Below are positions 86 through 42,667 of a stretch of DNA of 64,000 nucleotides, piece after piece (the first letter of the stretch is position 1; each line of letters begins with the position of its first letter). Below the pieces are notes generated by a model. The model made no database searches. It saw only the letters and a list, made by a program, of their open reading frames with translations, and had not been told where the DNA came from. The stretch comes from a virus: IMG/VR virus record IMGVR_UViG_3300027976_000033. The stretch is one strand, 5' to 3'. The position numbers and the translations under genes were made by a program.

Positions 86-718
86 ATGATTATGAACGAA
101 AATCCACTATGGGTGGAAAAATACAGACCAAAGACTATCGAAGATACTATTCTTCCTAGTGATCTCAAGAAAACATTTCAGACATTTGTTGATCAAAAAC
201 AAATTCCTAATTTAATTCTAGCTGGCTCTTCTGGTGTTGGTAAAACAACAGTAGCAAAAGCCATGCTAGAAGAACTTTCTTGTGATTATATTGTGATCAA
301 TGGGTCGATGAAGGGCAATATTGATACTCTGAGAAATGACATTCAACAATTCGCTAGTTCAGTATCTCTATCTGGTGGACGAAAGTATGTTATCCTCGAT
401 GAGGCCGATTATCTAAATTGTCTAGAAGAAAATGAAATGGTAAGACTTTTTGATGGATCTGCAATTAAGTTGAAAGATATGAAAGCCGATACTGAATATA
501 ATGTGGTTTCTTTTAATGTGCACACATTAGAGTTTGAATCTGACATAGCTACCGTTCTAAACCGAACAGAAAAAGAAACTTTCAAAGTCACGTTAGATGA
601 CGGAAGCTGTATCGAAGTGACAGCCGATCATCCGTTTATAGTTAAAGATTGTGATGGTATCATATCCGAAAGGTCTATTAATGACGGGTTAACTGGATAT
701 GAAATTGTATTGAAGTAA
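86..718 (+). CDS. 44: clamp loader large subunit gp44, N-terminal fragment: N-extein (86-418) fused to split-intein N half (419-715)
   Basis: KYRP motif, Walker A GSSGVGKTT and Walker B VILDEAD align with T4 gp44; after DEADYLN the frame continues as a Cys-initiated Hint domain and ends at TAA. Confidence 0.85.
   Translation: MIMNENPLWVEKYRPKTIEDTILPSDLKKTFQTFVDQKQIPNLILAGSSGVGKTTVAKAMLEELSCDYIVINGSMKGNIDTLRNDIQQFASSVSLSGGRKYVILDEADYLNCLEENEMVRLFDGSAIKLKDMKADTEYNVVSFNVHTLEFESDIATVLNRTEKETFKVTLDDGSCIEVTADHPFIVKDCDGIISERSINDGLTGYEIVLK
419..715 (+). other. split intein N-terminal half (IntN, 99 aa) in gene 44
   Basis: starts with Cys directly after the Walker B box; intein block B T-x-x-H (EVTADHPF); terminates at an in-frame stop instead of continuing into the extein. 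Confidence 0.8.
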
Positions 719-739
719 TGAGCTTGGAATTCATGTTTA

Positions 740-747
740 TATAAATA
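740..747 (+). promoter_or_regulatory. T4-type late promoter TATAAATA upstream of the intein-embedded endonuclease gene
   Basis: exact TATAAATA octamer about 60 nt upstream of ATG 806; T4 free-standing HEGs are commonly late-transcribed. Confidence 0.45.
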
Positions 748-805
748 AAGTGTAGGTCGCGGAGTGCAATCTCACCTACTCTAGAAATATAACCGGAGTT
801 CCAGC

Positions 806-1663
806 ATGAATATTTATAAACCATATACGTATTTAATAGGATGGGCTAAACTCGACAAATATTATTATGGTGCTAGATATGCTAAAAACTGTCATCCTAC
901 TGATTTGTGGAATCCATATAAAACATCTTCTCCTATAGTAAAGGAATTCGTAAGAATGTATGGACCCCCAGACATCATATCAATTAGAAAAACCTTCTGT
1001 GATGCTTATAGTGCTATCGATTGGGAACATAAAGTATTAACCAGACTTAAAGTTGGGGCAGGCAATCCTAAATTTTTAAACGCGCATAATGCTAAAGGAT
1101 TTATGCCCTATACTAGTGAAAATAATCCAATGTGCTTTCCTGCGGTAAAGATGAAAATGATTAAAACTAAAAGGGTTAAGGGTCTAATACTTTTATTAAA
1201 GAATAAAAATACATTTGTTCCGAGTAAAAACAAGGTTTTAAACCAACGATTAAAAAATTATTTACAAATAATAGAAGATAGACCTCGTCCTTATAAGATC
1301 ATAAAACAAGTTTTAGAAAAAATGTTAAATGATTGTGATAATTTTAAAAAAAGAAGTTATCCACAAGAAAGAAAGAGTAGTCCCCGCGGCAAGATGCCTA
1401 ACATTGGTATAGCCAAACTTTGTACAAAGTGGTATCATGATCCAGTCGATCTAAAAACCAGACCATTTATACCAGGCTCCGAACCTCAAGGTTGGGTATT
1501 AGGTATGATAAAATTGACACCGAATAATAATACAGATTCATCTAAAAAGAAACTATCTATATCGATGAAGCAATATCGTGCCAGCGAATCTGATGAAAAA
1601 AAACAACAAAGGATGACAAAATATCATGAAACAATTGAAAAGCGCAAAAGTGTTAAGTATTGA
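806..1663 (+). CDS. free-standing GIY-YIG-type homing endonuclease inserted between the split-intein halves of gene 44
   Basis: N-terminal YTYLIGW-x7-KYYYGAR-x-AKNCH then WEHKVL...N matches GIY-x10-YIG, R, H, E, N of Seg/I-TevI-like enzymes; basic C-terminal DNA-binding tail; 3' end overlaps start of the downstream gp44 fragment. Confidence 0.65.
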   Translation: MNIYKPYTYLIGWAKLDKYYYGARYAKNCHPTDLWNPYKTSSPIVKEFVRMYGPPDIISIRKTFCDAYSAIDWEHKVLTRLKVGAGNPKFLNAHNAKGFMPYTSENNPMCFPAVKMKMIKTKRVKGLILLLKNKNTFVPSKNKVLNQRLKNYLQIIEDRPRPYKIIKQVLEKMLNDCDNFKKRSYPQERKSSPRGKMPNIGIAKLCTKWYHDPVDLKTRPFIPGSEPQGWVLGMIKLTPNNNTDSSKKKLSISMKQYRASESDEKKQQRMTKYHETIEKRKSVKY

Positions 1664-1748
1664 ATCGACGGGAATTAAAAGCGTAGTCGATCTTACTGTT
1701 TACAAAAACCACACCTTTGTTACTGGCAATAACATTGTAGTACACAAT
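1626..1748 (+). other. split intein C-terminal half (IntC, 41 aa) in gene 44
   Basis: intein blocks F and G (VDLTV...NNIVVHN) followed by +1 Cys. Confidence 0.8.
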
Positions 1749-2363
1749 TGCAACTCTACACAACCAGCTCTTCGTAATTTCATGGAAGAGTTTTCAAAGA
1801 ATTGTGGATTTATTCTAACTTGCAATTATAAGAATAGAATTATAGCTCCGCTTCAGTCTAGATGTTCTATGATAGATTTCAAAATAAACAAGACAGATAT
1901 TGCACAATTATCTATGCAATTTATGAAACGTGTTTGTGACATATTAGATATCGAGAAAGTTACATATGAAAAGGCTGTAGTAGCTGAAGTTATTAAGAAA
2001 CATTATCCAGATTGGAGACGTGTTCTAAATGATGTACAGAGATACGCTGCCACTGGTGCTATTGATAGTGGAATTCTTGTTAATTTTCAAGAAGCATCAC
2101 TCAAACAACTCATAACACACATGAAAGCTAAGAATTTCACTGAAGTTCGTAAATGGGCTGGTGAAAATGTAGATAATGATGCTGATGTTATATTTAGAAA
2201 AATATATGATCAGGCAGCGGAATTATTGGTACCTTCAGCTGTTCCAGCGGTAGTTTTGACTATTGGGAAGTATCAGTATCAACATGCATTTGCTGCAGAC
2301 TCAGAAATCAATCTAGTGTGTTGTCTGCTTGAGATCATGATTGATTCTGAGTGGAGAACATGA
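1626..2363 (+). CDS. 44: gp44 C-terminal fragment: split-intein C half (1626-1748) plus C-extein (1749-2363)
   Basis: begins MKQLK...VVDLTVYKNHTFVTGNNIVVHN|C; the extein CNSTQPALRNFMEEF...LQSRC aligns with T4 gp44 after its Walker B region (sensor-1 and SRC motif). Confidence 0.85.
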   Translation: MKQLKSAKVLSIESTGIKSVVDLTVYKNHTFVTGNNIVVHNCNSTQPALRNFMEEFSKNCGFILTCNYKNRIIAPLQSRCSMIDFKINKTDIAQLSMQFMKRVCDILDIEKVTYEKAVVAEVIKKHYPDWRRVLNDVQRYAATGAIDSGILVNFQEASLKQLITHMKAKNFTEVRKWAGENVDNDADVIFRKIYDQAAELLVPSAVPAVVLTIGKYQYQHAFAADSEINLVCCLLEIMIDSEWRT

Positions 2364-2602
2364 GCCACTTTATAGTACGAAATGACCAAGGTGATTACAT
2401 GTATCACCGAAGAAATACTGGCCACATGTATGAAGATCGCACCGCATGGGGTGACAACATCTGTGAAGCTAGAGTTTTTACTAAAAAGAGCGCTGCCACA
2501 AATTCTGCAAATCAAGCCACACTTCAACCATATGATAAAAAGCCAAAATTCACTTATGATATAATTAAGGTAGTTTTAATAGAGATAACAGATGAACTGT
2601 GA
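2360..2602 (+). CDS. hypothetical protein
   Basis: ATG overlaps the gp44 stop (ATGA), suggesting translational coupling; 80 aa. Confidence 0.4.
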   Translation: MSHFIVRNDQGDYMYHRRNTGHMYEDRTAWGDNICEARVFTKKSAATNSANQATLQPYDKKPKFTYDIIKVVLIEITDEL

Positions 2603-2768
2603 ATGTTGTGACAATCCTCTTAAGGACGGTGAAGAAGCTATTTTGAAACTTGGCACTGCGGATGGTCCAGTTAAAATGAAAATATGCGCAGATTGTGAGA
2701 GATTCTTAGAAACGGCAATAAGTGCGATGAAGGATATTGACATTGATAATGATAAATTCTCCGAATAG
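2592..2768 (+). CDS. small zinc-ribbon protein (two CxxC pairs)
   Basis: 58-aa ORF MNCECCDNP...ICADCERF; below the ORF-track length cutoff. Confidence 0.35.
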   Translation: MNCECCDNPLKDGEEAILKLGTADGPVKMKICADCERFLETAISAMKDIDIDNDKFSE

Positions 2769-3216
2769 TATTGATGCGGAACATCATGATTATACGGTCT
2801 TCTTAAGTGGTTCTCTATCAATAAACGATACGAGTATCTATTGGAGAAGAAAGCTAATAGCATGTCTTGGTCCTATAGATCACGATGTAGCATTTTTAAA
2901 TCCTCATAGAGACGATTTGATTGAAGATCCAACTTGTCAATACTATATTGAACATATAGAGTGGGTAATGAAATGTCTCAACACAGCTGACCAGATGGTA
3001 TTTTATTTTGATCCTAAAGTTGAAACTCCCGTTTCGATGATGGAACTTGGTGCGATTGCAAGCAATAGAAATGTGATCATATGTTGTCCAGATAAGTTCT
3101 GGAAAAAGACTATAGTGAATGTCATATGTAACGAATTTGATGTTCCCATATTTAAAACTATAGAAGAAACTGCAGGATTTTTAAAGAAAAGAATATTAGA
3201 GGATATTGAATCATGA
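2749..3216 (+). CDS. nucleoside 2-deoxyribosyltransferase-like (Rossmann-like) protein, putative
   Basis: VFLSGS...W...NPH pattern typical of the deoxyribosyltransferase/DUF1937-like fold; first ATG at 2749. Confidence 0.3.
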   Translation: MINSPNSIDAEHHDYTVFLSGSLSINDTSIYWRRKLIACLGPIDHDVAFLNPHRDDLIEDPTCQYYIEHIEWVMKCLNTADQMVFYFDPKVETPVSMMELGAIASNRNVIICCPDKFWKKTIVNVICNEFDVPIFKTIEETAGFLKKRILEDIES

Positions 3217-3322
3217 CAGCAAAATTAGTTTTAGCACAACGTGCAAGTTATCTGTAATAAATATGATATGACCTTGGTTAATACTAAGGAAGAATTCTAT
3301 GATGAAATAAGAAAGTACATTA

Positions 3323-3697
3323 ATGATGAATATGTGGGACCTTCTGAATAGTATTAATCAGAACAAGAAAGATCTTTCTAAAGAAGAAGAATTCGAAAAA
3401 CAATACAACAACTTTATGATCAATCGCGGTCTGAGTTACTTCCCAGACACGATAATGTATTCTAATGAATTGAATCTACTCCCAGACTTAGATAAAGACT
3501 TACAATATCGATATCTAATAAATATTATTAGACCACGAAAGAGGTTTAGTAAATGGGCGAAGAAAAAAGATGACAGTGATTTGCAGTTAGTTATGGAATA
3601 TTTTGACTATAATATTGAGAAAGCAAAATCGGCATTATCTATACTTTCACCATCTGATATGAAAAAAATAAAAGAAAAATTGAACAAGGGTGGATAA
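3323..3697 (+). CDS. 62: clamp loader small subunit gp62
   Basis: FMINRGLSYFPD and YLINIIRPRKRFSKWAKK resemble T4 gp62 FMVENALSQFPE and YLMAAVPRGKRYGKWAKL; located between 44 and regA as in T4. Confidence 0.7.
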   Translation: MMNMWDLLNSINQNKKDLSKEEEFEKQYNNFMINRGLSYFPDTIMYSNELNLLPDLDKDLQYRYLINIIRPRKRFSKWAKKKDDSDLQLVMEYFDYNIEKAKSALSILSPSDMKKIKEKLNKGG

Positions 3698-4106
3698 CAT
3701 GACAAACGATATTTTCAATGGTAAGGGTATAGAAATTCTTATCGAAGAAGATGATGACTTTCTTAAAATAAGAGAAACACTTACACGCATAGGTGTAGCA
3801 TCAAGAAAAGATAAAATTCTCTATCAATCGTGCCATATTTTACATAAGCAAGGTAGATATGCCATTATACATTTTAAAGAGTTATTTGAGCTTGATGGAA
3901 AGACATCGAACTTTTCAGAAGAAGATCGTGGACGTAGAAATACGATTAGCAAATTGCTTGAGGATTGGGGTCTTATTACGATCGTAAATGTAGAGCAATC
4001 AGAAGCTCCTATCGCGCCATTGAGTCAAATTAAAATTCTTCCATATAAAGAAAAAGTAGACTGGGAATTGGTGACCAAATATAATATTGGTTCTCGCAAA
4101 AATTAA
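3690..4106 (+). CDS. regA: translational repressor RegA
   Basis: DDDFLKIRETLTRIGVASRKDKILYQSCHILHKQGRYAIIHFKE and LLEDWGLITIV match T4 RegA almost motif for motif. Confidence 0.9.
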   Translation: MDNMTNDIFNGKGIEILIEEDDDFLKIRETLTRIGVASRKDKILYQSCHILHKQGRYAIIHFKELFELDGKTSNFSEEDRGRRNTISKLLEDWGLITIVNVEQSEAPIAPLSQIKILPYKEKVDWELVTKYNIGSRKN

Positions 4107-4107
4107 G

Positions 4108-4136
4108 TTGACATTATCTCCTCAGTGGTATATAAA
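4108..4136 (+). promoter_or_regulatory. sigma70-type early promoter (TTGACA-N17-TATAAA)
   Basis: -35 TTGACA 4108-4113, 17-bp spacer, -10 4131-4136; followed by RBS GAGGAG and ATG 4158. Confidence 0.55.
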
Positions 4137-4157
4137 GTATCATTGAGGAGAATTGTT

Positions 4158-4337
4158 ATGAAATTTGTTGTAATAGAATTGAATGTTTATTCTAGTCCAG
4201 AAGAAGGTGAGAACCCCGGAACAATAGAAGCCGTTCATGGTCCGTTTGATGCAAAGACCGCTCAGGTCATATGCACAAAATTTAAAAAAGATAAAAAGTT
4301 TGCTACGAACTATTCTATTCATCCATTAATTTGTTGA
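4158..4337 (+). CDS. hypothetical protein
   Basis: ATG with GAGGAG RBS downstream of promoter. Confidence 0.4.
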   Translation: MKFVVIELNVYSSPEEGENPGTIEAVHGPFDAKTAQVICTKFKKDKKFATNYSIHPLIC

Positions 4338-4362
4338 CACCACTTTAAGTTTAGTATATAAG
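4334..4362 (+). promoter_or_regulatory. early promoter, member of repeated family (TTGACA-N17-TATAAG)
   Basis: gttgacaccactttaagtttagtatataag; same architecture as the 8404, 14191 and other copies. Confidence 0.6.
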
Positions 4363-4392
4363 AAATATATCAAAACAACAAAGGAACTTATT

Positions 4393-4767
4393 ATGTACAA
4401 ATCAATTGATAAGAAAACCGCAAATAAGATCATCAATGAAGTTGAAGCTGTGATGAAGAAATATGGTGCTGAAGTTGGATTGACCTTACTTCCTAGTCGC
4501 GCCAAATATTCAGATACCGACATTGGGTTTAATTTTACCCTCAAGATCGATGGCGCGAAATCATTCGATGATTTGAAGAAAGAACGCGCGCTCAAACAAG
4601 TCGCTGCAATGTACAATCTAACAACCGAACCAAAAGGCGGATTTCAACTTGTTGGTTATAATAGCCGCAAGCACAAATACCCCTTCATATATCAGAATCT
4701 TTCTAATGGCAAGCGGTTTATCACTTGCGATGAACGTGCAACATTGATGTTTGGTAATGCAGCTTAA
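4393..4767 (+). CDS. hypothetical protein
   Basis: ORF with AAGGAA RBS downstream of promoter. Confidence 0.5.
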   Translation: MYKSIDKKTANKIINEVEAVMKKYGAEVGLTLLPSRAKYSDTDIGFNFTLKIDGAKSFDDLKKERALKQVAAMYNLTTEPKGGFQLVGYNSRKHKYPFIYQNLSNGKRFITCDERATLMFGNAA

Positions 4768-4951
4768 GGATGTTTCTTCATGGAAATCAAATCATATGAC
4801 TTGCCAACGCGGTCCGATGGGGCATATGCTATAGAAACTAAATATTGCGAGCTTCTAACTCGTCAAAGGGCTGGTGAAAACCTTGCAGAAGAACAGAAGG
4901 ATTGGATGGACTCGGCTAACAGTTGGCTATCGATATTGTAAGGAATTTGAT

Positions 4952-5251: not shown

Positions 5252-5380
5252 CATTATGACAGAAAAGAATAGAAATATTAGCATAGGTGTTGGAGCGCTT
5301 CTTGCCATCAGTGGTCTTTTGGTATTCCTATCAATGCGCGCAATTCGATTACAGCTTGATGCGGTGTACGATGAAATTGA

Positions 5381-5755: not shown

Positions 5756-5758
5756 GAA

Positions 5759-7743: not shown

Positions 7744-7834
7744 AAACACAAGGATTGAACCTAAGGGTTCTTTAGCATTTAAAACCCATAATGCTTTAAT
7801 ATTGGTAAAACATAAACAACTATAGGAATAATAT

Positions 7835-8402: not shown

Positions 8403-8403
8403 G

Positions 8404-21060: not shown

Positions 21061-21690
21061 ATGAGCATTGAAAATATTATATTAAGTAGTTTGTTATATA
21101 ATGAAGATTACGTCAGAAAGACGATAGCATTTTTAAAGCCAGAATATTTTCATAACGATGCTGATAAAGTTCTTTATAAATTAATAGAACACTATTTCCA
21201 GAAGTACAATGCCTCTCCAACAAAGGAAGCATTGCTTCTGGACATAGATAAAGTATCTTTACCGGAACACGTTTTTAAAGAGTGTGTCGAAAAGACCAAG
21301 ACTTTAGAATATACCGAACAACAGATGGTTTGGCTTACAGATACTACAGAGAAATTCTGTCAAGACAAAGCTCTCTACAATGCGATCATGGATTCAATCA
21401 AAATTATCGATGACGATGATGACAAAAATCCATTATCTAAGGGTTCTATTCCACAAATTCTGAGTGACGCTTTAGCAGTATCGTTTGATACTGATATCGG
21501 TCATGATTATTTAGAAAATTCTGAAGAGAGATTCGAGTATTATCATTTAGCTGAAGCGAAAATACCATTCGACATTGAGCATTTTAATAATATCACTAAG
21601 GGTGGTGTTTCTAGAAAAACACTTACAATCATACTTGCTGGTTGTGTTCATCCATCAACAAAAATTAAAGTGCGAATTAGAAAAGTGTAA
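21061..21690 (+). CDS. 41: replicative helicase gp41, fragment 1: N-extein (21061-21642) plus 15-aa split-intein N half
   Basis: DnaB/gp41 N-terminal domain; ends ...KTLTIILAG|CVHPSTKIKVRIRKV* inside the Walker A loop (T4 LLAG-VNVGKS). Confidence 0.85.
   Translation: MSIENIILSSLLYNEDYVRKTIAFLKPEYFHNDADKVLYKLIEHYFQKYNASPTKEALLLDIDKVSLPEHVFKECVEKTKTLEYTEQQMVWLTDTTEKFCQDKALYNAIMDSIKIIDDDDDKNPLSKGSIPQILSDALAVSFDTDIGHDYLENSEERFEYYHLAEAKIPFDIEHFNNITKGGVSRKTLTIILAGCVHPSTKIKVRIRKV
21643..21687 (+). other. atypical split-intein N half (IntN, 15 aa)
   Basis: Cys-initiated 15-residue peptide between the extein and an in-frame stop; complemented by a 128-aa IntC downstream. Confidence 0.65.
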
Positions 21691-22309
21691 ATCCGCGCTG
21701 GTATCCAATATCAATATACGATTGCAACAAATCAGGCTTTATTCTAGTTCTATGTTTTCCATTAGTTACACATATGAAGCCAGTAAGAGCTCTGCCGCCC
21801 TTAGCACAAATAATTTTTTTTACATCTGGATCGAAAAAGGCTCCTATTTTATTTTCTCTTTGTGTTTTAGAGCCAGCAGTTCCACCCTTTGAACACATGT
21901 TTTTTCTAAAGACTGGATCGAAAGTTCCTACTTTATTTTTGGATTGTGTCACCGCCGCCTTTCTGGCGCTAGCTCTGATTGATTCTTTATTATTTTTATA
22001 TTTATCAGAATGAAATCCGATTTTGTTTTTATGACAGAACTTACCAGTGATAATTCGCTGTTTAGTTGAAAGCTTCGCACCCAACATGTGCATAGATCTT
22101 AAATCATTTGGATTTTTATATATTTTCCACAATAAGAAATGAGCAATTATGTGTTCTCTAATATTTAGATATGTTAAATTTTCTTGTAAATCGCCGCCGC
22201 CCATGTGTTTTGGAATTATGTGATGAGCATGTAATCCGCTGGCGTAGCCATATTTTTCTTTTAATGATTTTCTATTTTCACACAATGATGAATAGATTAT
22301 ATCATACAT
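21677..22309 (-). CDS. HNH homing endonuclease (free-standing, opposite strand, between the split-intein halves)
   Basis: GLHAHHIIPKHMGGGD ... NLTYLNIREHIIAH HNH motif. Confidence 0.75.
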   Translation of the reverse strand: MYDIIYSSLCENRKSLKEKYGYASGLHAHHIIPKHMGGGDLQENLTYLNIREHIIAHFLLWKIYKNPNDLRSMHMLGAKLSTKQRIITGKFCHKNKIGFHSDKYKNNKESIRASARKAAVTQSKNKVGTFDPVFRKNMCSKGGTAGSKTQRENKIGAFFDPDVKKIICAKGGRALTGFICVTNGKHRTRIKPDLLQSYIDIGYQRGFTLF

Positions 22310-22323
22310 GTTTTAATCTTTCG

Positions 22324-22331
22324 TATAAATA
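22324..22331 (+). promoter_or_regulatory. T4-type late promoter octamer TATAAATA upstream of gp41 fragment 2
   Basis: exact TATAAATA 46 nt upstream of ATG 22377. Confidence 0.4.
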
Positions 22332-22376
22332 TTATGCCAGTGCCGGCTAGTAATATTTATTATTTTGGAGTTTTTA

Positions 22377-22760
22377 ATGAATAATTGGGTAGAAAAAGAA
22401 ATAGAAATAGGTGCCGTAGATGACTTGCTTAAAGAGGGTTATGAAGTAGAGGTATATTCTCCAGATGGTTGGGTTGGCATTAATTTTTTTGTTGATAAGG
22501 GTTCATATGAAGAATATATCATTACAACCGCAAATGGATTAGAAGTCAAATGTAACGCGGATCATTTATTTAAGTCTGTTGATGATGAATGGATTACTGC
22601 ACAAGAGTTAGAATATATGCAAGATCCTGTAGAATTAGTAACGATACATGGACCATCATTAGCATTTACCATTAAGACAGATAATATAATTCCAATTGTA
22701 GACATAAATGTTAATCATAAAAATAAGCGATATTATACAAATGGTATAGAATCACACAAT
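22377..22760 (+). other. atypical split-intein C half (IntC, 128 aa, contains block B)
   Basis: contains EVKCNADHLF (block B) and terminal GIESHN followed by +1 Thr. Confidence 0.65.
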
Positions 22761-23558
22761 ACTGGCGCGGGCAAAAGTTTGGCAATGTGCCACATGGCAG
22801 CTGGCAATCTCATGGATAATAAGAGTGTCCTATATATCACGCTCGAAATGGCTGAAGAAAAGATCGCAGAAAGAATTGATGCTAATCTTCTAAATATTAC
22901 CATGGACGATTTGGATAAAACTCCAAAAGCCTACTACGATAAAATGATTGCTAAGCTAAAGTCCAGAACTATGGGCAAGCTTATCATTAAAGAATATCCA
23001 ACTTCAACAGCCCATGCAAATCACTTTCGTCATCTTCTTAATGAATTAAAAATTAAGAAGAATTTTATACCAGACATCATCTATATCGATTACATCAATC
23101 TATGCGGATCAGTCAGAATTAAGGCCGGTGCTAATGCTAACTCGTACACGATGATTAAGTCGATTGCCGAAGAACTTCGTGGACTTGCCGTTGAACACAA
23201 CGTTCCTATCATTAGTGCTACACAGGTTACTCGAGCTGGATATGGTTCAAGCGATATTGAAATTACCGATACATCTGAATGTATCTTCCAGGATGAAATG
23301 ATTGAACTGCGTGATGGTAGTTCTAAAATGATTAAAGATATTGTAGTTGGAGATCAAATTATATCTAATGATCAATATAAAACGGTTCATATGGTTCATC
23401 ATTCGAAACTCAAAGACTGTTATAAGATAAAAACATCAGCTGGCAAAGAAATAATTGTAAGCAAAGATCATGTATTTCCAACAAAGCGTGGCAGAATATC
23501 AATCGAAACTGGTTTGAGTGTTGGTGATAATCTTAATAGTAGGAACCGTGATGAGTAA
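22377..23558 (+). CDS. 41: gp41 fragment 2: 128-aa IntC (22377-22760) plus central extein (22761-23279) plus IntN of second split intein (23280-23555)
   Basis: ...NGIESHN|TGAGKSLAMCHMA completes the Walker A motif; DnaB RecA-like core; ends ...DTSE|CIFQDEM...NRDE*. Confidence 0.85.
   Translation: MNNWVEKEIEIGAVDDLLKEGYEVEVYSPDGWVGINFFVDKGSYEEYIITTANGLEVKCNADHLFKSVDDEWITAQELEYMQDPVELVTIHGPSLAFTIKTDNIIPIVDINVNHKNKRYYTNGIESHNTGAGKSLAMCHMAAGNLMDNKSVLYITLEMAEEKIAERIDANLLNITMDDLDKTPKAYYDKMIAKLKSRTMGKLIIKEYPTSTAHANHFRHLLNELKIKKNFIPDIIYIDYINLCGSVRIKAGANANSYTMIKSIAEELRGLAVEHNVPIISATQVTRAGYGSSDIEITDTSECIFQDEMIELRDGSSKMIKDIVVGDQIISNDQYKTVHMVHHSKLKDCYKIKTSAGKEIIVSKDHVFPTKRGRISIETGLSVGDNLNSRNRDE
23280..23555 (+). 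other. split-intein N half (IntN, 92 aa), gp41-1-like
   Basis: CIFQDEMIELRDGS ... KDHVFPT (block B) ... stop; same pattern as described gp41-type split IntN. Confidence 0.8.
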
Positions 23559-23817
23559 TATTTATTTAGCATGCTTAGCTAAAGCAGAGTACTTGATGGA
23601 AAATGGTTATCCAGTTGGTAAGATTGATTTGGCACAATTGACCGATCTTCTTGTTAAATTGGAAAATGAGAAAATAGAAAAGCAAACACTCTCAGATGCT
23701 GTTATAGATTATAATGATACTATTGTCGAAATCATAGAGCTTGGAGAACTGGAAACAGTCGATCTTTCTGTGTCTGGTGATAATCTTTTCTATTGTAATG
23801 ACATATTAACAAAGAAT
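23551..23817 (+). other. split-intein C half (IntC; start uncertain, 89 aa from first ATG)
   Basis: blocks F/G VDLSVSGDNLFYCNDILTKN then +1 Ser. Confidence 0.6.
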
Positions 23818-24102
23818 AGTTTTGGACTTCCCGCCACTGCAGATTTAATGTTTGCTCTAGTTACATCTGAAGAGATGGAAAAATTAAATCAAGTTATGGT
23901 GAAGCAACTTAAAAACAGATATTCAGACATATCAAAGGATAGGAGATTTTTTGTTGGACTAGATAAGAGTAGAATGAAATTTTATGATCTAGAAGATAGT
24001 GCACAACGAGTTTTAAATGACGATGTTGCTATAATGGATCAAACGCCGACTGGTAAAAGAATTAATGATGAACTTAGAGATAAAATGAAAGATTTTAAAT
24101 GA
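23551..24102 (+). CDS. 41: gp41 fragment 3: IntC (23551-23817) plus C-extein (23818-24102)
   Basis: ATG overlaps the fragment-2 stop (ATGAGTAA); ...VDLSVSGDNLFYCNDILTKN|SFGLPATADLMFAL continues T4 gp41 ...SAGLPATADFMLAV. Confidence 0.8.
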   Translation: MSNIYLACLAKAEYLMENGYPVGKIDLAQLTDLLVKLENEKIEKQTLSDAVIDYNDTIVEIIELGELETVDLSVSGDNLFYCNDILTKNSFGLPATADLMFALVTSEEMEKLNQVMVKQLKNRYSDISKDRRFFVGLDKSRMKFYDLEDSAQRVLNDDVAIMDQTPTGKRINDELRDKMKDFK

Positions 24103-34510: not shown

Positions 34511-34983
34511 TGTTTACTGGTATTTTGATGAAAATTGGATTTAGCATACTTGGCGGATTTAAATGGATCGGCCAGTTTCTAAAAGATAATTGGAAATGGG
34601 TGCTTCCTATTCTATTAGCCCTTGGTGCTTATTGGTATCACAACCATGCTGTAAAAACTGCATACGGAAATGGATATCTGGGTGGTGTTAAAGATGAACA
34701 GGCAGCCATTCAAGAAAGAATGGATGCTGAAAATAAAAAGAATCGCGAATTCGAGCAGATGTTAAATAGTGCAATAAGTGAATTCGGTAGAGGATTGATT
34801 ACTGAAACGGCTGAAAGAGTTGCAATCGAAGCGAAATTGAATAAATCAATTCAAACGATTATTAGAGACAATCCTATCTATGAACAGTGCCAGGTAGATC
34901 AGGGTGTTACTGATGCTAGAAATCAGATTAGAAAATTGGGACCCGGTCCCGTGGCTAGAATGGAATTACCAGATGCAGAATAA
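34510..34983 (+). CDS. inner-membrane spanin (Rz-like)
   Basis: N-terminal TM helix then charged coiled-coil periplasmic domain; followed by overlapping lipoprotein gene. Confidence 0.6.
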   Translation: MFTGILMKIGFSILGGFKWIGQFLKDNWKWVLPILLALGAYWYHNHAVKTAYGNGYLGGVKDEQAAIQERMDAENKKNREFEQMLNSAISEFGRGLITETAERVAIEAKLNKSIQTIIRDNPIYEQCQVDQGVTDARNQIRKLGPGPVARMELPDAE

Positions 34984-35299
34984 AATTATAATAGTGATCG
35001 CTAGCCTCGCCCTTGCAGGATGCGCTACAACTCATGAATTTACACCAGATGGTGTAACACCTGTTCGAATTCCAGATTTACCAGCAGGGCTTTCTATTAA
35101 GGCCAACCAGATGCCACAAATTGAAAGCAACAGTATGGGAGCACATGTTAGTGCTGGTGTTGATGCTGATATTGCTTATAACGATGTCGCATTTAAATAT
35201 AACCATTTAATTGATTTATACAATTGTGTTAAGCAATCAATTAACAATAAAACAGATTTGAAAGAGTGTTTAGATGGCCCAGCCGAATCCACTAGATAA
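34973..35299 (+). CDS. outer-membrane spanin lipoprotein (Rz1-like)
   Basis: signal peptide with lipobox LALAG|C; start overlaps the last 11 nt of the i-spanin gene. Confidence 0.6.
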   Translation: MQNKIIIVIASLALAGCATTHEFTPDGVTPVRIPDLPAGLSIKANQMPQIESNSMGAHVSAGVDADIAYNDVAFKYNHLIDLYNCVKQSINNKTDLKECLDGPAESTR

Positions 35300-35498: not shown

Positions 35499-35555
35499 AT
35501 ACAATATGATTTGATGACTTTTCTCTGTAATGTATAATTAAATAGGAGAAATAGA

Positions 35556-35804: not shown

Positions 35805-35848
35805 ATTGTATATATAGTTTAGTATTACATTATGTGAGCAATTTAAAT

Positions 35849-36871
35849 ATGTACTCCTGGATAGATACTAAATATATCAATCTACTTTCACCAAAACTTC
35901 AAATGTTTAAAAGATCGGGCGGATCCTATAATTTTAGGTGTCCGATCTGTGGTGACTCTCGAAAATCAAAAACTAAAGCGCGCGGTTGGATTTATCCAAA
36001 GGACGGACATGTGAGATTTCACTGTCATAATTGCAATGCGAGTATGAAGTTCAAATATTTTCTTAAACAGATAGACAATCCGCTTTATTATGAATATCTG
36101 AAAGAGGTTCTTGTGGATAAAGATGGTCCTAAGAAAGAAACCGATCTTCAGCAATTTGTTAATAAAATGAAAAAGCCAGTCTTTGCAAAGACAACTAAAA
36201 TTGCTGATCTTAAAAAGATATCACAATTGGCGCCAGATCATCCTGCTAAATTATATGTGATGAAAAGAAGAATTCCACCACACGTTCATCATAAACTATA
36301 CTATGCACCAAAATTTAAAGCATGGACAAATAGCCAAATAGCAAACAAATTTGAAAGTCTAGAATTCGATGATGGTAGAATTATCATTCCACTTCTAGAC
36401 GAAGCTGGCGACATGTTTGGCTATCAGGGTAGGTCTCTAAAGAAGAACGATAATATGAAATATATTACAATTTTGCTTAATGATGACAGACCTAAAGTTT
36501 TTGGATTAGATAGCATAGATAAATCCAAGCGTGTTTATGTCTTAGAGGGTCCGTTGGATGCATTGTTTCTTAGTAACTCTATAGCATCATGTGGGGGCAA
36601 ACTTGAAACAAACATTGAAGCATGTGATATCGAAAATCATGTTATTGTTTATGACAATGAACCACGTGGAAAAGAAACAATTCGCAAAATGGAAGATTCA
36701 ATTAATGCTGGACACAACATTTGCATATGGCCAAATGATATCATTCAAAAAGATATAAACGATATGGTGTTGGCTGGATTCACTCCATTAGAAATAAAAA
36801 ATATCATAAATGAAAACACGTACGATAATTTGTCAGCGAAAATGCAAATGTTAGAATGGAAAAAGATATGA
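35849..36871 (+). CDS. 61: DNA primase gp61
   Basis: zinc ribbon FRCPICGDSRKSKTKARGW...HCHNCN and TOPRIM VLEGPLDALFL...DNEPRG align with T4 gp61. Confidence 0.9.
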   Translation: MYSWIDTKYINLLSPKLQMFKRSGGSYNFRCPICGDSRKSKTKARGWIYPKDGHVRFHCHNCNASMKFKYFLKQIDNPLYYEYLKEVLVDKDGPKKETDLQQFVNKMKKPVFAKTTKIADLKKISQLAPDHPAKLYVMKRRIPPHVHHKLYYAPKFKAWTNSQIANKFESLEFDDGRIIIPLLDEAGDMFGYQGRSLKKNDNMKYITILLNDDRPKVFGLDSIDKSKRVYVLEGPLDALFLSNSIASCGGKLETNIEACDIENHVIVYDNEPRGKETIRKMEDSINAGHNICIWPNDIIQKDINDMVLAGFTPLEIKNIINENTYDNLSAKMQMLEWKKI

Positions 36872-37113: not shown

Positions 37114-37122
37114 GGATAAACA

Positions 37123-37623
37123 ATGATGAATTTTAATGAATTTGTAATAGAACAGAAAGGTGATCACAAAGATGGAACATACATTTCTGTTAAATTGAAT
37201 AAGCAAGACTCAGCAAAGCTTGACTTTTGGGCAACTGAAAATGGAATAAAGAATCTTATAGACCCTTCAGAATATCATACCACAGTAATATATTCAAAGA
37301 AGGGCATACCAGATTCTAAAGGATATGATCTTGATCTTCCAATAGAAGCTAAAATATCCGGATGGGAAATATTTGATTCACAGGGAAGTACCAAATGTCT
37401 AGTTGGTGTATTAGACAGCAAAGAATTAGTAAAGCATCACAACAACATCATGAGCACATATAAGGGTACTTATGATTTTCCGAAATATATTCCACATATC
37501 ACACTAACATATAATAATGCAGATCGTGGCATTCCAAAAGAACTACCCGATTTTAATCTTAAGTTTGATACTAGAGATTTTCAACCCATTCGACCAGATT
37601 TTATACCGAAAAGCAAATCATAA
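37123..37623 (+). CDS. 2H phosphoesterase superfamily protein (LigT/cyclic phosphodiesterase-like)
   Basis: two H-x-T-x motifs: HTTVIY and HITLTY. Confidence 0.55.
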   Translation: MMNFNEFVIEQKGDHKDGTYISVKLNKQDSAKLDFWATENGIKNLIDPSEYHTTVIYSKKGIPDSKGYDLDLPIEAKISGWEIFDSQGSTKCLVGVLDSKELVKHHNNIMSTYKGTYDFPKYIPHITLTYNNADRGIPKELPDFNLKFDTRDFQPIRPDFIPKSKS

Positions 37624-38660
37624 TGAGAATTGAAACTGAAGAATATCTTGATTTTTCACAAGTTCTTCTTAAGCCAAAAAGATCTAAATTGACTTCTAGA
37701 CTTCAGGCTAACATTACTAGAAATTTTAAATTCCTCTATTCAAATATAGATTTTAATGACTGTACTCCGATAATTGCTGCTAATATGACTACTGTTGGAA
37801 CATTTGAAACTGCTAAAGTGTTATCAGATAATGCAATGCCAACATGCATACACAAATTTTATAACATTGATGAACTAGAAGCTTTTTTTAAAATAGATAC
37901 TAACAGAGAATTTTTCTATACTATGGGGTCGGGTCAAGAAGAATATGATAAGTATGTTACACTGATATCGAAGATTGGTTATACTCCAAACGTGTGTATC
38001 GATGTTGCAAACGGATATTCGGAAAGCTTTGTAAAATATGTGTCTAAAGTTAGAGCGTTTGTTGAAAATAATGCCACAATCATGGCTGGAAATGTTGCAA
38101 CACCAGAAATTACAGAAGAATTAATTCTGAATGGTGCCGATATTGTAAAAGCTGGAATCGGTTCAGGGGCACTTTGTACAACTCGTTTAGTTACAGGTGT
38201 TGGCATACCACAATTTTCATGTGTTGCTGAATGTGCTGATGCTGCTCATGGTGTTGGTGGTATGCTTTGTTCAGACGGCGGGATTACATGTCCGGGTGAT
38301 GTTGTAAAAGCTTTTGGTGCAGGCGCTGATTTTGTGATGGTTGGATCTGAGTTTGCTGGCCATACTGAAAATTCGGATTCTGGTAATAATGTTACAATAT
38401 ATGGTATGAGTTCATCCATGGCTCAAGAGAAACACTACACAGAAAATAAATCATACAGATCAAGTGAAGGCCGAGAAGCTGTTATAGAATTCAGAGGCGA
38501 TATACAAGACACACTAAATTATTATTTTGGTGGGCTTCGCTCTGGAATGACATATATTGGAGCTCAAAACATTAAAGAGATTCCAAAAAGAGCAACCTTT
38601 ATCAAAGTGTCTAAAATATTAAATGAGACACATCTACACAATACCGTAAGGATTAAATAA
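37623..38660 (+). CDS. guaC: GMP reductase (IMPDH/GMPR family)
   Basis: catalytic loop [11 protein letters not shown]; 345 aa, the GuaC size, without CBS insert. Confidence 0.75.
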
Positions 38661-39391
38661 TGACCGAACCAGTATCACTAGTATCGCTATCTTCACCATC
38701 AGCTGAAACTGACTGTAAAACGGCTGAAGAATTGATTGCTTATGTAGCAAGAGTAAGTGCGAAAGAAAATCAGGGAAATAAATCGACAGCACAATCTCTA
38801 ATTAATTTTTTAATTACTCATAATCATTGGTCTCCATTAGAGATGGTTAATATGACATTGGAAATTAATACTACGAGAGACATTGCACGACAATTACTTC
38901 GTCATAGATCATTTTCGTTTCAAGAATTTAGTCAGAGGTATGCTGAAGTAAATACTGATGATTTTGTTTTGAGAGAAGCGAGATTACAAGATTCAAAAAA
39001 CAGACAAAATAGTATGAAGTCGCATGATATGGGTCTACAGACTGAGTGGAACAAAAAACAACAAAGTGTTATTAGAGCTGCAACAGAAGCATATGAATGG
39101 GCAGCAGCACATAATATCGCTAAAGAACAGCGCCGCGTTGTTTTACCAGAAGGACTAACACCATCTAGAATGTATATGCAAGGCAATATACGCTCGTGGC
39201 TACACTATTGTTTATTGAGAATGGGGAATGGTACTCAATTAGAACACATAATGATAGCAAATAGAGTGTGGTTAATTCTTCATCAACATTTTCCAAACAT
39301 AACAAAAATATTTCATGAGCATCAAAGAGAAATTCAAAATATTCTCCTAGCTTATGATAATGAACAAGATGCCTATCAGAATGCAAAATAA
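38660..39391 (+). CDS. thyX: flavin-dependent thymidylate synthase ThyX
   Basis: ThyX signature RHRSFSFQEFSQRY (RHR-x7-S). Confidence 0.85.
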   Translation: MTEPVSLVSLSSPSAETDCKTAEELIAYVARVSAKENQGNKSTAQSLINFLITHNHWSPLEMVNMTLEINTTRDIARQLLRHRSFSFQEFSQRYAEVNTDDFVLREARLQDSKNRQNSMKSHDMGLQTEWNKKQQSVIRAATEAYEWAAAHNIAKEQRRVVLPEGLTPSRMYMQGNIRSWLHYCLLRMGNGTQLEHIMIANRVWLILHQHFPNITKIFHEHQREIQNILLAYDNEQDAYQNAK

Positions 39392-39659
39392 TAGATTACA
39401 TATAGTGTGCGATTGTAACACTTTAGAACATCAAATTGTATTTGATTATGATGATGACGAATATTATCTCATGGTTCATTTATCTAAAAAGTCATTTTTT
39501 AGAAGATTCATCCATGCAATCAAATATATAATAGGCTATCAATCACAAAATGGCGCATTTGATGAGGTTCTTATAGGAACATCAGATTTAGATAGAATAA
39601 TAGAGCACATGAAAAAATATAAAAATAAGGACCAACATGTCACAAATACACGTAATTAA
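39354..39659 (+). CDS. hypothetical protein
   Basis: ORF. Confidence 0.4.
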   Translation: MIMNKMPIRMQNNRLHIVCDCNTLEHQIVFDYDDDEYYLMVHLSKKSFFRRFIHAIKYIIGYQSQNGAFDEVLIGTSDLDRIIEHMKKYKNKDQHVTNTRN

Positions 39660-41253
39660 AAGAGACGGCTCAAAAGAACTCTTAGATATAGAAAAAATTC
39701 ACAAAGTATTATATTGGGCATGTGAGGATATTACTGGCGTTTCAGTATCTGAAATTGAACTGAAATCAGAAATTCAGTTTTATACCAACATAGAGACTGC
39801 GACGATTCATGAAACCATGATTCGATCTGCTGCCGAACTTATCACTGAAGACTCACCGAATTATCAATATGTTGCTGGTAGACTTATAAACTATCATCTT
39901 AGAAAACAAATCTATGGTTCACATAAAGTTCCTAATCTCTTTGAACATTACAAAAAGATAACAGATCTTGGGTATTACGATAAACAGCTAATGGATTTAT
40001 ATGATGTGGATGAGTGGGAATATTTAGATAAAATAATAGATCATTCGCGTGATGATGATATTGCATATGCCGGCATGGAACAGTTGCGCGGCAAGTATCT
40101 TGTTAAGGATAGAGCATCTAGTGAAATATTTGAGACACCACAAATAGCGTTCATGTTGATTTCAATGACTCTATTTTCTCATTATAATAAATACAATAGG
40201 ATGAAGTGGGTTAAAGATTTATATAATGCTATATCACAATTCGATATAAGTTTACCTACTCCCATTATGGCTGGCGTCAGAACTCCTGACAGACAATTCA
40301 GCTCTTGTGTATTGATTGAAAGTGGAGATTCTTTGGATTCAATTAATGCTACTTCGTCTGCTACAGTTAAATACGTATCTCAGAAAGCTGGCATTGGCCT
40401 TGGCGCAGGTCGTATCCGTGCCCTTAAATCTCGTATTAGGAACGGCGCTGCTGTGCACACTGGGGTTATTCCTTTTTATAAGCTCTTTGCTTCTTCTGTT
40501 AAATCCTGCAATCAGGGCGGAGTTCGCGGGGGGTCTGCGACACTTCACACAGTTATTTGGCATAAGGAAATAGATGATATTCTTGCTCTGAAGAGCAATA
40601 AGAAAACAGTAGAAACTAGCTGTAGAAATTTGGATTATTCCATTCAATTGTCTAGACTGTTTTATGATAGACTTATTAGTGGCGGCGATATAACACTGTT
40701 TTGTCCAAATGATGTTCCAGATTTATACGATGCGTTTTTTAAAGATCAAGACGAATTCGATAGATTGTATGTTAAGTACGAAAAATCTTATAAGATTGAA
40801 AAGACGACTGTTCCAGCGATTGAAGTATTTTCTAAACTGATGCAAGAAAGAAAAGAAACTGGTCGCATATATTTCATGAATGTGGATCATTGTAATACAC
40901 ACAGTTCATTCAAACAAGATTTAGCTCCAATTAGAATGAGCAATCTCTGTCTATCAGGAAATACTGATATTGTTATAATGAATGATAATGGTGAGATCAA
41001 AGATATTAAAATTAAAGATTCTATTGTTGGTGATAAAATATATTCCCGTGATTTAAACAAAGGCAAGGACGAATTTCGCGAAATTAAAGCTTTCGCGAAA
41101 ACCGCACAAGACGCTAGTGTTATGAAAATTACTGATGAAGAAACAGGTAAATTTATCATTTGTACACCAGAACATAAAATATACACACAAAATCGTGGAT
41201 ATGTGATGGCTGAGGATCTTCTTGAAAGCGACATTTTAAAGTTTCAGGATTAG
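39637..41253 (+). CDS. nrdA: ribonucleotide reductase alpha subunit NrdA, N-terminal fragment: N-extein (39637-40947) plus split-intein N half (40948-41250)
   Basis: ATP-cone, class I RNR core; ends ...PIRMSNL|CLSGNTDIV... (E. coli SNLCLEI site). Confidence 0.9.
   Translation: MSQIHVIKRDGSKELLDIEKIHKVLYWACEDITGVSVSEIELKSEIQFYTNIETATIHETMIRSAAELITEDSPNYQYVAGRLINYHLRKQIYGSHKVPNLFEHYKKITDLGYYDKQLMDLYDVDEWEYLDKIIDHSRDDDIAYAGMEQLRGKYLVKDRASSEIFETPQIAFMLISMTLFSHYNKYNRMKWVKDLYNAISQFDISLPTPIMAGVRTPDRQFSSCVLIESGDSLDSINATSSATVKYVSQKAGIGLGAGRIRALKSRIRNGAAVHTGVIPFYKLFASSVKSCNQGGVRGGSATLHTVIWHKEIDDILALKSNKKTVETSCRNLDYSIQLSRLFYDRLISGGDITLFCPNDVPDLYDAFFKDQDEFDRLYVKYEKSYKIEKTTVPAIEVFSKLMQERKETGRIYFMNVDHCNTHSSFKQDLAPIRMSNLCLSGNTDIVIMNDNGEIKDIKIKDSIVGDKIYSRDLNKGKDEFREIKAFAKTAQDASVMKITDEETGKFIICTPEHKIYTQNRGYVMAEDLLESDILKFQD
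40948..41250 (+). other. split-intein N half (IntN, 101 aa) in nrdA
   Basis: Cys start, block B TPEHKIYT, ends at stop. Confidence 0.8.
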
Positions 41254-41401
41254 TTGGAATATGTTCCATATTACAAATGTAAGAAACAAAAATCGTAACT
41301 GGAAAAAAATGGTTTTTTTGTAAAGACATAAAAAGCAATAGATTGTGTCATGAACATGAATTAGATATAAAATTAAACTGGAAAAAGGGTAGAATGACAT
41401 C

Positions 41402-41503
41402 ATGGGATTAAGACTAGAATATTTAACTGATGTAGAAGATGTTTATGACGTAACGGTTGATAAAAATTTAAATTTTTATGCTAATGGTATTTTAGTTCAT
41501 AAT
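41402..41503 (+). other. split-intein C half (IntC, 34 aa) in nrdA
   Basis: blocks F/G, terminal HN, +1 Cys. Confidence 0.8.
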
Positions 41504-42667
41504 TGTCAAGAAATAACATTACCAACTCATCCACTTACTAGCATCCACGATGGAGAACCATCTAAAGAGCCAGTTCAAATTAACTGGAGTGATTGGGACG
41601 CATATGAAGAATTCAAAATATCGAATTCAGATTATGTTTACAAGCGCGGAAAGGGTCAGCACACCGACACATTTGCTTATGAAGTCATAAATTATATCAA
41701 TTTTGATAGCGCTTATAGGTGTGTTTACGAATTAGCTGAGAGTGATTCTAAAGCAGAAATTGCACTATGTACATTGGGAGCAATCAATTGGGGCAAAATT
41801 AAAAAACCTGAAGATTTCATGAAGCCAGCTAGATTGTTGGTTAGAGCTTTAGATGCACTATTAGATTATCAGTCGTATCCAGTTAAAGCTGCTGAAAATG
41901 CAACCATGAATAGAAGGCCACTTGGAATTGGTATCATCAATTTTGCATATTGGATCGCTAAGAATGGTATGACATATAGTGAACCAAATTTAGAGCTCAT
42001 CCACGAATACGCCGAAGCATGGTCATATTATTTGATTAGAGCATCTGTAGAATTAGCAGAAGATTTTGGTCCATGCCCACTATCACACCAGACAAAATAT
42101 GATGACGGTATTATGCCAATTCATACATACAAAGAAGCTGTTGATGAATTAGTAAACCCAGACTATAAATTGGATTGGAATGAACTATCAGAAAGATTGA
42201 AGAAGAGCAAGATTAGAAATTCTACATTAATGGCTCTAATGCCATCAGAAACATCTTCTCAAGTTTCTAATTCTACTAATGGTATTGACCCTATCAGAGA
42301 GATAGTTTCTATTAAACAATCTAAAGATGGTGTACTAGCACAAGTTGCGCCGGAGCCAATTAAATTTAAGAACAAGTATGAAAAGATGTGGGATGCTAAA
42401 ACACCACACGGTTATATAAAAATTATGGCAGTACTTCAAAAGTTCATTGATCAATCTATCTCAACAAATACGACTTATAATCCAGAGCATTATCCAGATG
42501 AGATGCTGTCTGAGGCTGGATTGCTTACAGACATGTTGATGATGTATAAATATGGTATCAAGACAGCATATTATTTTAATACAAATGACGATGCTGGAGA
42601 GATAGAAGTCCCTGATGCCGACGTTGAAGCAATGGAAGATGAAACGTGCGACGCTTGCGCGATATAA
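41402..42667 (+). CDS. nrdA: NrdA C-terminal fragment: IntC (41402-41503) plus C-extein (41504-42667)
   Basis: MGLRLEYLTDVEDVYDVTVDKNLNFYANGILVHN|CQEITLPT; the extein restores the catalytic NLCxEIxLPT motif. Confidence 0.9.
   Translation: MGLRLEYLTDVEDVYDVTVDKNLNFYANGILVHNCQEITLPTHPLTSIHDGEPSKEPVQINWSDWDAYEEFKISNSDYVYKRGKGQHTDTFAYEVINYINFDSAYRCVYELAESDSKAEIALCTLGAINWGKIKKPEDFMKPARLLVRALDALLDYQSYPVKAAENATMNRRPLGIGIINFAYWIAKNGMTYSEPNLELIHEYAEAWSYYLIRASVELAEDFGPCPLSHQTKYDDGIMPIHTYKEAVDELVNPDYKLDWNELSERLKKSKIRNSTLMALMPSETSSQVSNSTNGIDPIREIVSIKQSKDGVLAQVAPEPIKFKNKYEKMWDAKTPHGYIKIMAVLQKFIDQSISTNTTYNPEHYPDEMLSEAGLLTDMLMMYKYGIKTAYYFNTNDDAGEIEVPDADVEAMEDETCDACAI

Follow-up and report, generated by a model that had tools for sequence, protein, structure and literature searches.

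Three DNA-metabolism genes of the 64,000-nucleotide viral stretch IMGVR_UViG_3300027976_000033 (hereafter the window, taken at its full length) are encoded in seven separate pieces, according to the listing of open reading frames (ORFs) and their translations. The clamp-loader gene gp44 is found in two pieces, the helicase gene gp41 in three and the ribonucleotide reductase (RNR) gene NrdA in two, and a HINT (intein) domain is present at every break point. Protein trans-splicing at all four breaks of these fractured genes of a T4-like myovirus is the best explanation of this arrangement, and in our judgement very probably the correct one. An earlier note on this DNA had proposed that gp44, gp41 (twice) and NrdA need trans-splicing and that their neighbours are intact, and this proposal was borne out on every sequence-level test that was run.

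The window derives from an uncultured T4-like myovirus. The nearest relatives of its gp43 are those of cyanomyoviruses, at ~49% identity, and a nucleotide search against GenBank phages returned only a 61-bp match, so that no known phage is close to the window. Public contigs that match the window are all shorter than it. The genes gp43, UvsX and NrdB are uninterrupted, and the primase gene (gp61, 35834..36871) is likewise intact. A profile built from the four inteins found no further HINT domain in the six-frame translation of the 64 kb; because nothing else was matched, the window contains exactly four inteins. Some of the wording of the earlier note needs to be narrowed. The 'complete genomic context' that it described is a 64-kb metagenomic contig and not a whole genome. 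Its count of four split inteins in three genes holds, but as regards its phrase 'essential replication genes', NrdA serves nucleotide supply and is not strictly an essential replication gene. The arrangement is of a known kind, detailed by Dassa et al. 2009 (PMC2677866).

The Pfam domains AAA and Gp44_lid, DnaB and DnaB_C, and those of RNR occur on the pieces expected, and no in-frame stop lies within any of the pieces. Pfam Intein_splicing or Hint matches were obtained on six of the seven, every one below the Pfam curated cut-off. The piece without a match is the N piece of gp41, which carries only 15 intein residues.

Anatomy of the four loci

The first locus is gp44 (all features of the three split genes are on the plus strand unless noted). 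The N piece (86..718) consists of a 111-residue N-extein of the clamp-loader large subunit (86..418, ending ILDEADYLN) and a 99-residue intein N piece followed by a stop (419..718, CLEENE...EIVLK), the latter with a Pfam Intein_splicing match below the curated cut-off. The C piece (1626..2363) consists of a 41-residue intein C piece (1626..1748, MKQLKS...NIVVHN) and a 204-residue C-extein with Gp44_lid that begins at the +1 Cys and ends in a stop (1749..2363, CNSTQPALRNF...). The break is three residues past Walker B (DEADYLN|C). Comparison with intein-free alleles makes the N-extein boundary exact and also places the start of the C-extein, and the spliced product (DYLN|CNSTQ) aligns without a gap across the junction to T4 gp44 (8UNF, 1.5e-50). 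In 50 IMG/VR relatives gp44 is contiguous, with the two exteins directly abutting. The +1 residue of intein-free gp44 is Pro or Ala in 47 of 48 matched alleles and Asp in the remaining one, against Cys in the intein allele. The rejoined intein matches DnaE and DnaB inteins in the PDB at about 3e-7. Its first residue (C1) and the block B residues T179 and H182 (TxxH) are invariant in 19 gp44 intein homologues of 53–99% identity that share the split point, and gp44 N pieces ending at this one point form at least 18 protein clusters (53–99% identical, about 209 residues). The order of N piece, 292-residue ORF and C piece is repeated on ENA and JGI contigs of 87–153 kb, and the gp45-gp44-gp62-regA synteny around the split is kept in relatives.

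The gp44 halves are separated by a free-standing gene of 285 residues (806..1663), the last 38 nt of which (1626-1663) also encode the beginning of the intein C piece. The product has no Pfam match to any nuclease family, and among PHROGs it matches only a family of unknown function. A fold search shows a GIY-YIG alpha/beta fold in which the conserved Tyr-Tyr-Gly, Arg, Glu and Asn are present. All sequences in the family of this ORF have Y7, Y9, Y20-Y21-G22, E74 and N92, and at least 90% have R24. The N-terminal ~95 residues recur in 47 proteins from metagenomes, and NUMOD3 or SegE_GIY-YIG domains are present in several of these. The gene is taken to encode a GIY-YIG homing endonuclease with a presumed cleavage activity.

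The 5' untranslated region (5'UTR) of this endonuclease gene forms a hairpin (722..805) in which the GGAG ribosome-binding site (795-798) is base-paired with the upstream arm. The octamer TATAAATA is also within this hairpin, at 740-747. The fold of positions 716-815 has an energy of -25.3 kcal/mol (z -2.95), and a fold starting from 750 onward loses the structure (z +0.5). The copy at 740 most plausibly belongs to a hairpin that regulates the GIY-YIG gene. A second copy, at 22324-22331 on the plus strand, precedes the gp41 middle piece by 45 nt and is a candidate late promoter that is not significant alone. The positions given earlier for octamers preceding the downstream fragments (740 and 22324) are right, although the one at 740 precedes the endonuclease gene and not the gp44 C piece. 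Nine of the 10 copies of TATAAATA in the window are on the plus (coding) strand. Hairpin scans at 22310-22390 (z -0.6), 23500-23570 (z +0.4) and 41340-41415 yielded nothing significant, and scans for sigma-70 promoters and terminators around all three loci were at chance level.

The second and third inteins, a and b, are both carried by gp41. The N piece of the helicase (21061..21690) has a 194-residue N-extein (21061..21642), which ends TLTIILAG in the Walker A loop and is uninterrupted in a sister strain. It is followed by an intein a N piece of only 15 residues and a stop (CVHPSTKIKVRIRKV, 21643..21690), an atypical S1 split; the homologue of this short piece in the relative L007 is CVHPDTKVVIRYRRVSS. 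The middle piece (22377..23558) has its true start at ATG 22377, with GGAG ahead, and not at TTG 22365. In it the middle extein is flanked by the 128-residue C piece of intein a (22377..22760, MNNWVEK...GIESHN), which is related to VidaL, and by the N piece of intein b. The middle extein itself has 173 residues and a +1 Thr (22761..23279, TGAGKS...ITDTSE), and intein a sits within Walker A (LAG|TGAGKS). Rejoined intein a matches VidaL (6VGV) at 3.6e-11, over the C piece. The spliced helicase aligns without gaps through both junctions to T4 gp41 (8DTP, 9e-100), and gp41 occurs without either intein in 70 relatives, whose uninterrupted alleles bear out the junctions exactly.

The two halves of intein a are separated by an HNH-type homing-endonuclease gene of 210 residues on the minus strand (21677..22309), identified by a match to PHROG 655 ('homing endonuclease', 8.6e-20) and a weak Pfam HNH match. 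This gene converges on the gp41 N piece with a 14-nt overlap. The convergent overlapping layout is kept in L007, a relative of about 60% identity, whose HNH protein is 43% identical. The sister strain (contigs L003-L005, 97.3% nucleotide identity) lacks the intein a cassette altogether and has a contiguous LAG-I-GAGKS, its P-loop at the empty site reading CTTGCTGGTATAGGGGCGGGC. Relative to this strain the window has an exact 1118-nt insertion (21643..22760), which contains the 15-residue N piece, the HNH gene and the 128-residue C piece, along with a +1 codon change from ATA to ACT. Judged from sequence, this is an exact occupied/empty-site pair, of the kind that a mobile unit of intein and endonuclease should leave. 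Immediately downstream of the site, a stretch of 120 nt (22764..22884 versus 6001..6120 of L003) contains 10 mismatches against an average of about 2.7%, a cluster suggestive of a co-conversion tract, with similar clumps found elsewhere.

Intein b is inserted in the DTSE|SFGLPATAD motif. Its N piece has 92 residues and a stop (23280..23558, CIFQDE...NRDE) and is matched by 6QAZ. The C piece of gp41 (23551..24102) consists of an 89-residue intein b C piece (23551..23817, MSNIYL...NDILTKN) and a 94-residue C-extein with +1 Ser and a stop (23818..24102, SFGLPATAD...). The +1 residue is Ser in all 74 of the intein-free relatives matched at this site. The rejoined intein matches gp41-1 (6QAZ) at 6e-18. 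The stop of the N piece and the ATG of the C piece overlap by 8 nt in adjacent frames (ATGAGTAA), with an AGGA ribosome-binding site 6 nt ahead of ATG 23551. In the window there is no endonuclease gene between the halves. In the more distant relatives L008 and L009, which also have the long intein b C piece (52% identity), a 328-residue ORF separates the halves and in L008 overlaps the C piece by 8 nt. The ORF of L008 (2011..2997) has a IIEYNNEFWHCHP motif and a weak DUF559 match (0.039), both of which would suit a member of the Vsr-like/EDxHD family of homing endonucleases described by Dassa et al. Because an ORF lies between the same halves in these relatives, intein b of the window is taken to be in an endonuclease-less state. 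The first part of its C piece (23551..23700) is predicted to be helical and charged (KIDLAQLTDLLVKLENEKIEKQ); this part is found in L008 and L009 and not in gp41-1 or gp41-8.

The fourth intein is that of NrdA. The N piece (39637..41253) consists of a 437-residue N-extein (39637..40947), ending PIRMSNL directly before the thiyl-radical Cys, and a 101-residue intein N piece with its stop (40948..41253, CLSGNT...LKFQD). The C piece (41402..42667) consists of a 34-residue intein C piece (41402..41503, MGLRLE...GILVHN) and a C-extein (41504..42667, CQEITLPT...) whose +1 Cys is the catalytic thiyl Cys. The spliced product (MSNL|CQEITLPT) is gapless at the junction when aligned to a class Ia NrdA (7MDI, 2e-89), and the rejoined intein matches NrdJ-1 (8UBS) at 5e-12. 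A 148-bp spacer (41254..41401) lies between the halves. In the sister contigs L133-L135 identical intein halves flank a 242-residue GIY-YIG gene (Pfam GIY-YIG, 1.4e-10), which in L133 is likewise preceded by a hairpin with TATAAATA in it (z -4.6) and overlaps the intein C piece by 10 nt. The ~97%-identical sister population that is without the intein a cassette has thus kept its NrdA endonuclease gene. The spacer corresponds in alignment to about a dozen nucleotides that directly follow the stop and to the final ~135 nt of the L133 gene; the window lacks about 600 bp and a further 16 bp there. Because of this alignment, the spacer is taken to be the remnant of a deleted GIY-YIG gene. The same NrdA site carries an intein at 80 IMG/VR loci, of which ~64 show ~740 bp inserted between the halves, ~7 are apparently contiguous and 6 are truncated.

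Two further observations concern the NrdA region. The C-extein has a ~63-residue insertion after the LPT active-site loop (about 41552..41743, C-extein residues about 17-80) that is absent from E. coli-type NrdA structures and is variable or absent among more distant phage relatives. Directly 3' of nrdB there is a free-standing GIY-YIG gene (43799..44536, plus strand, 245 residues; LEM-3_GIY-YIG 4.4e-9), the fifth nuclease-type mobile gene in the window and one with no intein attached.

Proposed splicing and the alternatives to it

At all four inteins the intein ends in Asn and is followed by a +1 Cys, Ser or Thr, in keeping with class 1 HINT domains. The motifs are C1, TADH and HN|C for gp44; C1, TPEH and HN|C for NrdA; C1, NADH and HN|T for gp41 intein a; and C1, SKDH and KN|S for intein b. 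The four are no more than 31% identical to each other. Net charges of the N and C pieces are complementary for gp44 (-11/+3), intein a (+5/-15) and intein b (+1/-11). Against the sister strain, and from small counts, the N piece of intein b has a ratio of nonsynonymous to synonymous polymorphism (pN/pS) of 0.08 and the C piece one of 0.26, compared with 0.06–0.08, also from small counts, for the gp41 exteins (0.06 for the middle extein). Intein b of gp41 is under purifying selection.

Several points weigh against trans-splicing as set out here, or against parts of it. Block B of intein a is NADH, with Asn in the Thr position, and the penultimate residue of intein b is Lys, where His is usual. 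The Asn-for-Thr and Lys-for-His deviations both occur in other active inteins. The 89-residue C piece of intein b has an unexplained N-terminal extension of about 50 residues, and the halves of the NrdA intein are both negative (-5/-4), without overall charge complementarity. The octamer TATAAATA, proposed earlier as a late promoter, occurs 10 times in this AT-rich window where 9.3 +/- 2.9 copies are expected by chance; since the count equals chance, the octamers alone are not promoter evidence. No gp55 homologue is seen in the window, although no search aimed at one was made. Splicing itself is something that we infer from the catalytic residues, the purifying selection and the homology to active inteins.

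The alternative that survives best is that the pieces work as non-covalent complexes without splicing, the intein halves being dimerisation handles or degenerate. Precedents for such complexes are cited in PMC2677866 and PMC3653736, namely the endonuclease-split NrdA of Aeromonas phage Aeh1, where this was shown, and the split gp43 of phage 25, where it was proposed, and the absence of a penultimate His from intein b would fit a degenerate intein. However, neither the four inteins nor their divergent homologues have lost Cys1, TxxH, the terminal Asn or the +1 nucleophile, and the +1 Cys of gp44 is found only in intein-bearing alleles. In addition, three of the breaks are at Walker A, just after Walker B and at the thiyl Cys, where ~100–180 extra residues would be hard to tolerate. 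We consider this explanation very unlikely.

A second alternative applies to intein b only. A programmed +1 frameshift at ATGAGTAA could make this intein contiguous and cis-splicing and gp41 a two-piece gene, and the two ORFs do overlap by 8 nt in adjacent frames. The overlap has no slippery sequence or stimulatory structure (z +0.4), and ATG 23551 has its own AGGA ribosome-binding site. In L008 and L009 the same halves are separated by the 328-residue endonuclease gene and therefore act in trans there. A frameshift is very improbable, and trans-splicing of intein b is preferred.

The window is a metagenomic assembly without an isolate, and this favours regarding the breaks as errors of assembly or sequencing, or the contig as a chimera of several phages. 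Contigs from ENA and Logan, however, carry the gp41 region with nucleotide identities of 99.99% and 100%, a JGI contig has the exact gp44 N-piece protein in the same three-ORF layout, and the NrdA intein N piece is identical on three IMG/VR contigs. Because independent contigs carry the same loci, a chimera, which the earlier note had named as grounds for rejecting its proposal, is excluded, as is a sequencing frameshift. The sister strain L003-L005 retains the intein b split, its frames and the ATGAGTAA overlap despite ~3% scattered substitutions, the same split layouts are seen in relatives that are 50–70% identical, and the gp45-gp44-gp62-regA order recurs in relatives. Artefact can scarcely account for the breaks. 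Hardly any weight need be given, either, to a defective phage whose split genes are decaying pseudogenes: the NrdA endonuclease remnant shows that deletions occur, and nothing else specific favours it, while the low pN/pS of the gp41 exteins and intein b N piece (higher in the C piece), the lack of in-frame stops and the recurrence of the layouts in many populations all argue against it.

Under trans-splicing, free-standing homing-endonuclease genes would have broken mini-inteins into separately translated halves. Seven polypeptides would be made, and the intein halves would pair non-covalently before splicing yields gp44 (DYLN-CNSTQ), NrdA (MSNL-CQEITLPT) and gp41 (ILAG-TGAGKS and DTSE-SFGLPAT), the last by two independent reactions on a three-piece precursor set. 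Intein a has the S1 split of the VidaL type, after ~15 residues, and the three remaining inteins are divided where an endonuclease is canonically inserted. As inteins a and b are divergent and differently split, they should not cross-react. The endonuclease genes would serve as mobility modules. At gp44 the hairpin may mask the ribosome-binding site of the GIY-YIG gene in read-through transcripts and leave it unmasked in transcripts that start at the internal TATAAATA, if that octamer is used as a late promoter. At intein a the HNH gene would move together with the intein as the 1118-nt cassette. At NrdA and intein b the split intein is left without its endonuclease gene, which has been lost. 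Translational coupling, which the earlier note had also described, is plausible from the gene layout at two of the four breaks only. One is in gp41, where the middle piece overlaps the C piece by 8 nt and AGGA precedes the start, and the other is in gp44, where the C piece overlaps the endonuclease gene; the NrdA pieces do not overlap, and coupling is not plausible for them.

Relation to known systems

The loci of the window are 'fractured genes', phage genes of DNA metabolism with a break at a split intein (Dassa, London, Stoddard, Schueler-Furman & Pietrokovski 2009, NAR 37:2560; PMC2677866). This is an established mechanism class and not a new mechanism, and different stages of the gene-breaking model of these authors stand side by side in the window. 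They found a hairpin in 15 of 16 endonuclease 5'UTRs, and 15 loci with an overlap of 6–69 bp between the endonuclease gene and the C-terminal intein half (PMC2677866). The same features are seen here: a free-standing GIY-YIG or Vsr-like gene between the halves (gp44 in the window), a TATAAATA-containing hairpin upstream of the endonuclease gene (gp44 in the window, and L133), and an endonuclease 3' end that runs over the start of the C half (38 nt in the window, 6–69 nt in theirs). Endonuclease-less derivatives (their gp41-7), gp41 and NrdA as hosts, and an NrdA insertion point immediately ahead of the thiyl Cys are also common to both. In contrast, gp44 is outside their eight host types, the window has four loci on one contig with two in one gene, and the window and its sisters together show an endonuclease remnant and an exact empty-site allele. 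All three ORFs are on one strand in their loci, whereas the HNH gene of intein a is on the opposite strand. A same-strand endonuclease gene is found between the halves of gp44 in the window; there is none for intein b and NrdA, for which the relatives L008 and L133 have, respectively, a 328-residue gene with weak DUF559/Vsr-like similarity and a GIY-YIG gene.

Natural S1-split inteins with N pieces of 15–16 residues are already known, that of VidaL having 16 (PMC13014065). VidaL (6VGV) shares with intein a the S1 split, the short N piece (15 residues here) and Cys1, and its chain ends VSHASG against ESHNTG in the window, consistent with the same P-loop site. We take the source of VidaL to be a T4-like helicase in Lake Vida metagenomes. 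The similarity is only moderate, and the window differs in adding genomic context, namely the HNH gene between the halves and the empty-site allele.

The GOS inteins gp41-1 and gp41-8 (6QAZ; PMC7090010 supplement) are homologous to intein b at 31% and 30% identity, and share its canonical split point and its charge polarity with an acidic C piece. They differ in their sites (SGY|SSS and LNR|SAY, versus DTSE|SFG in the window) and in C pieces of 37–45 residues, compared with 89 in the window, where the penultimate residue is Lys. Intein b was also considered as an allele of gp41-1; its site is 11 residues downstream of TRAGYG|SSD, which makes it a homologue and not an allele. The NrdA intein, by comparison with GOS NrdA-2, has the same SNL|C site and 43% identity over the full length (2.5e-36), and is an allele of the NrdA-2 type. 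A GIY-YIG gene between the halves is likewise shared, although by the sister strain; in the window that gene is deleted, leaving a 148-bp remnant with no TATAAATA.

Clamp-loader inteins have been described in cyanobacterial DnaX (Pol III gamma/tau) and archaeal RFC, where they are contiguous and cellular (Novikova et al. 2016, PMC4760082). The gp44 intein resembles these in its place in a clamp-loader AAA+ ATPase near Walker B, but it is split and phage-borne and is not detectably related to that of Ssp DnaX. In Aeromonas phage Aeh1, as described by Gibb & Edgell and cited in PMC2677866, nrdA is split by mobE and the pieces assemble non-covalently. According to that citation Aeh1 is alike in having an RNR gene split by an endonuclease gene, with a late promoter in a hairpin that sequesters the ribosome-binding site, and different in having no intein.

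A tblastn search of each intein against 50,697 GenBank phage records returned no close homologue and no record with this set. The matches (at most 43% identity) are all to distant inteins in other hosts, among them UvsX in PA5oct-like phages and NrdA in phages of Campylobacter and Yersinia. The sole deposited record weakly matching two of the window inteins is that of Streptococcus phage vB_SagM-GXN1 (PQ819873.1), at 34974..35228 and 123837..124091, corresponding to gp44-type and NrdA-type N pieces; this may be another multi-intein phage. No clamp-loader split intein or multi-split-intein phage was found in the literature searched, the coverage of which was incomplete.

Other genes of the window and significance

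An IMPDH/GMP-reductase-like gene (37623..38660, plus strand) is intact in the window and represents an unoccupied potential intein site; the GOS IMPDH-1 split intein was reportedly found in such a phage gene. Two adjacent genes on the minus strand (57659..58402 and 58359..59336) have Pfam ADPrib_exo_Tox on identical public contigs and probably encode Alt/Mod-like ADP-ribosyltransferases. The pair is among the few minus-strand genes of the window.

As far as could be found, the gp44 host family, the three-piece helicase and the matched alleles with their polymorphism are new. Tentatively, and with confidence somewhat short of even, we suggest that the window provides the first documented natural case of a protein, gp41, assembled from three pieces through two presumably orthogonal split inteins (S1 and S0), an undescribed metagenome-wide gp44 split-intein family, and a ~97%-identical population snapshot of cassette gain and loss and of endonuclease deletion.

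These results would be useful to those who engineer inteins and to those who study the dynamics of selfish elements. The two gp41 inteins are a naturally co-evolved pair on one protein and may thus offer a ready-made orthogonal pair for tandem trans-splicing, and the 15-residue N piece of intein a equals the shortest reported for a natural split intein. The gp44 intein adds the clamp loader to the fractured replication genes, and its family of at least 18 sequence clusters may serve both the engineering of inteins and the study of why inteins target ATPase motifs. The window and its sisters constitute matched before and after alleles, with an empty cassette site in one case and a deleted endonuclease gene with its remnant in the other, and these directly illustrate gene-breaking steps that were previously inferred from unrelated loci.

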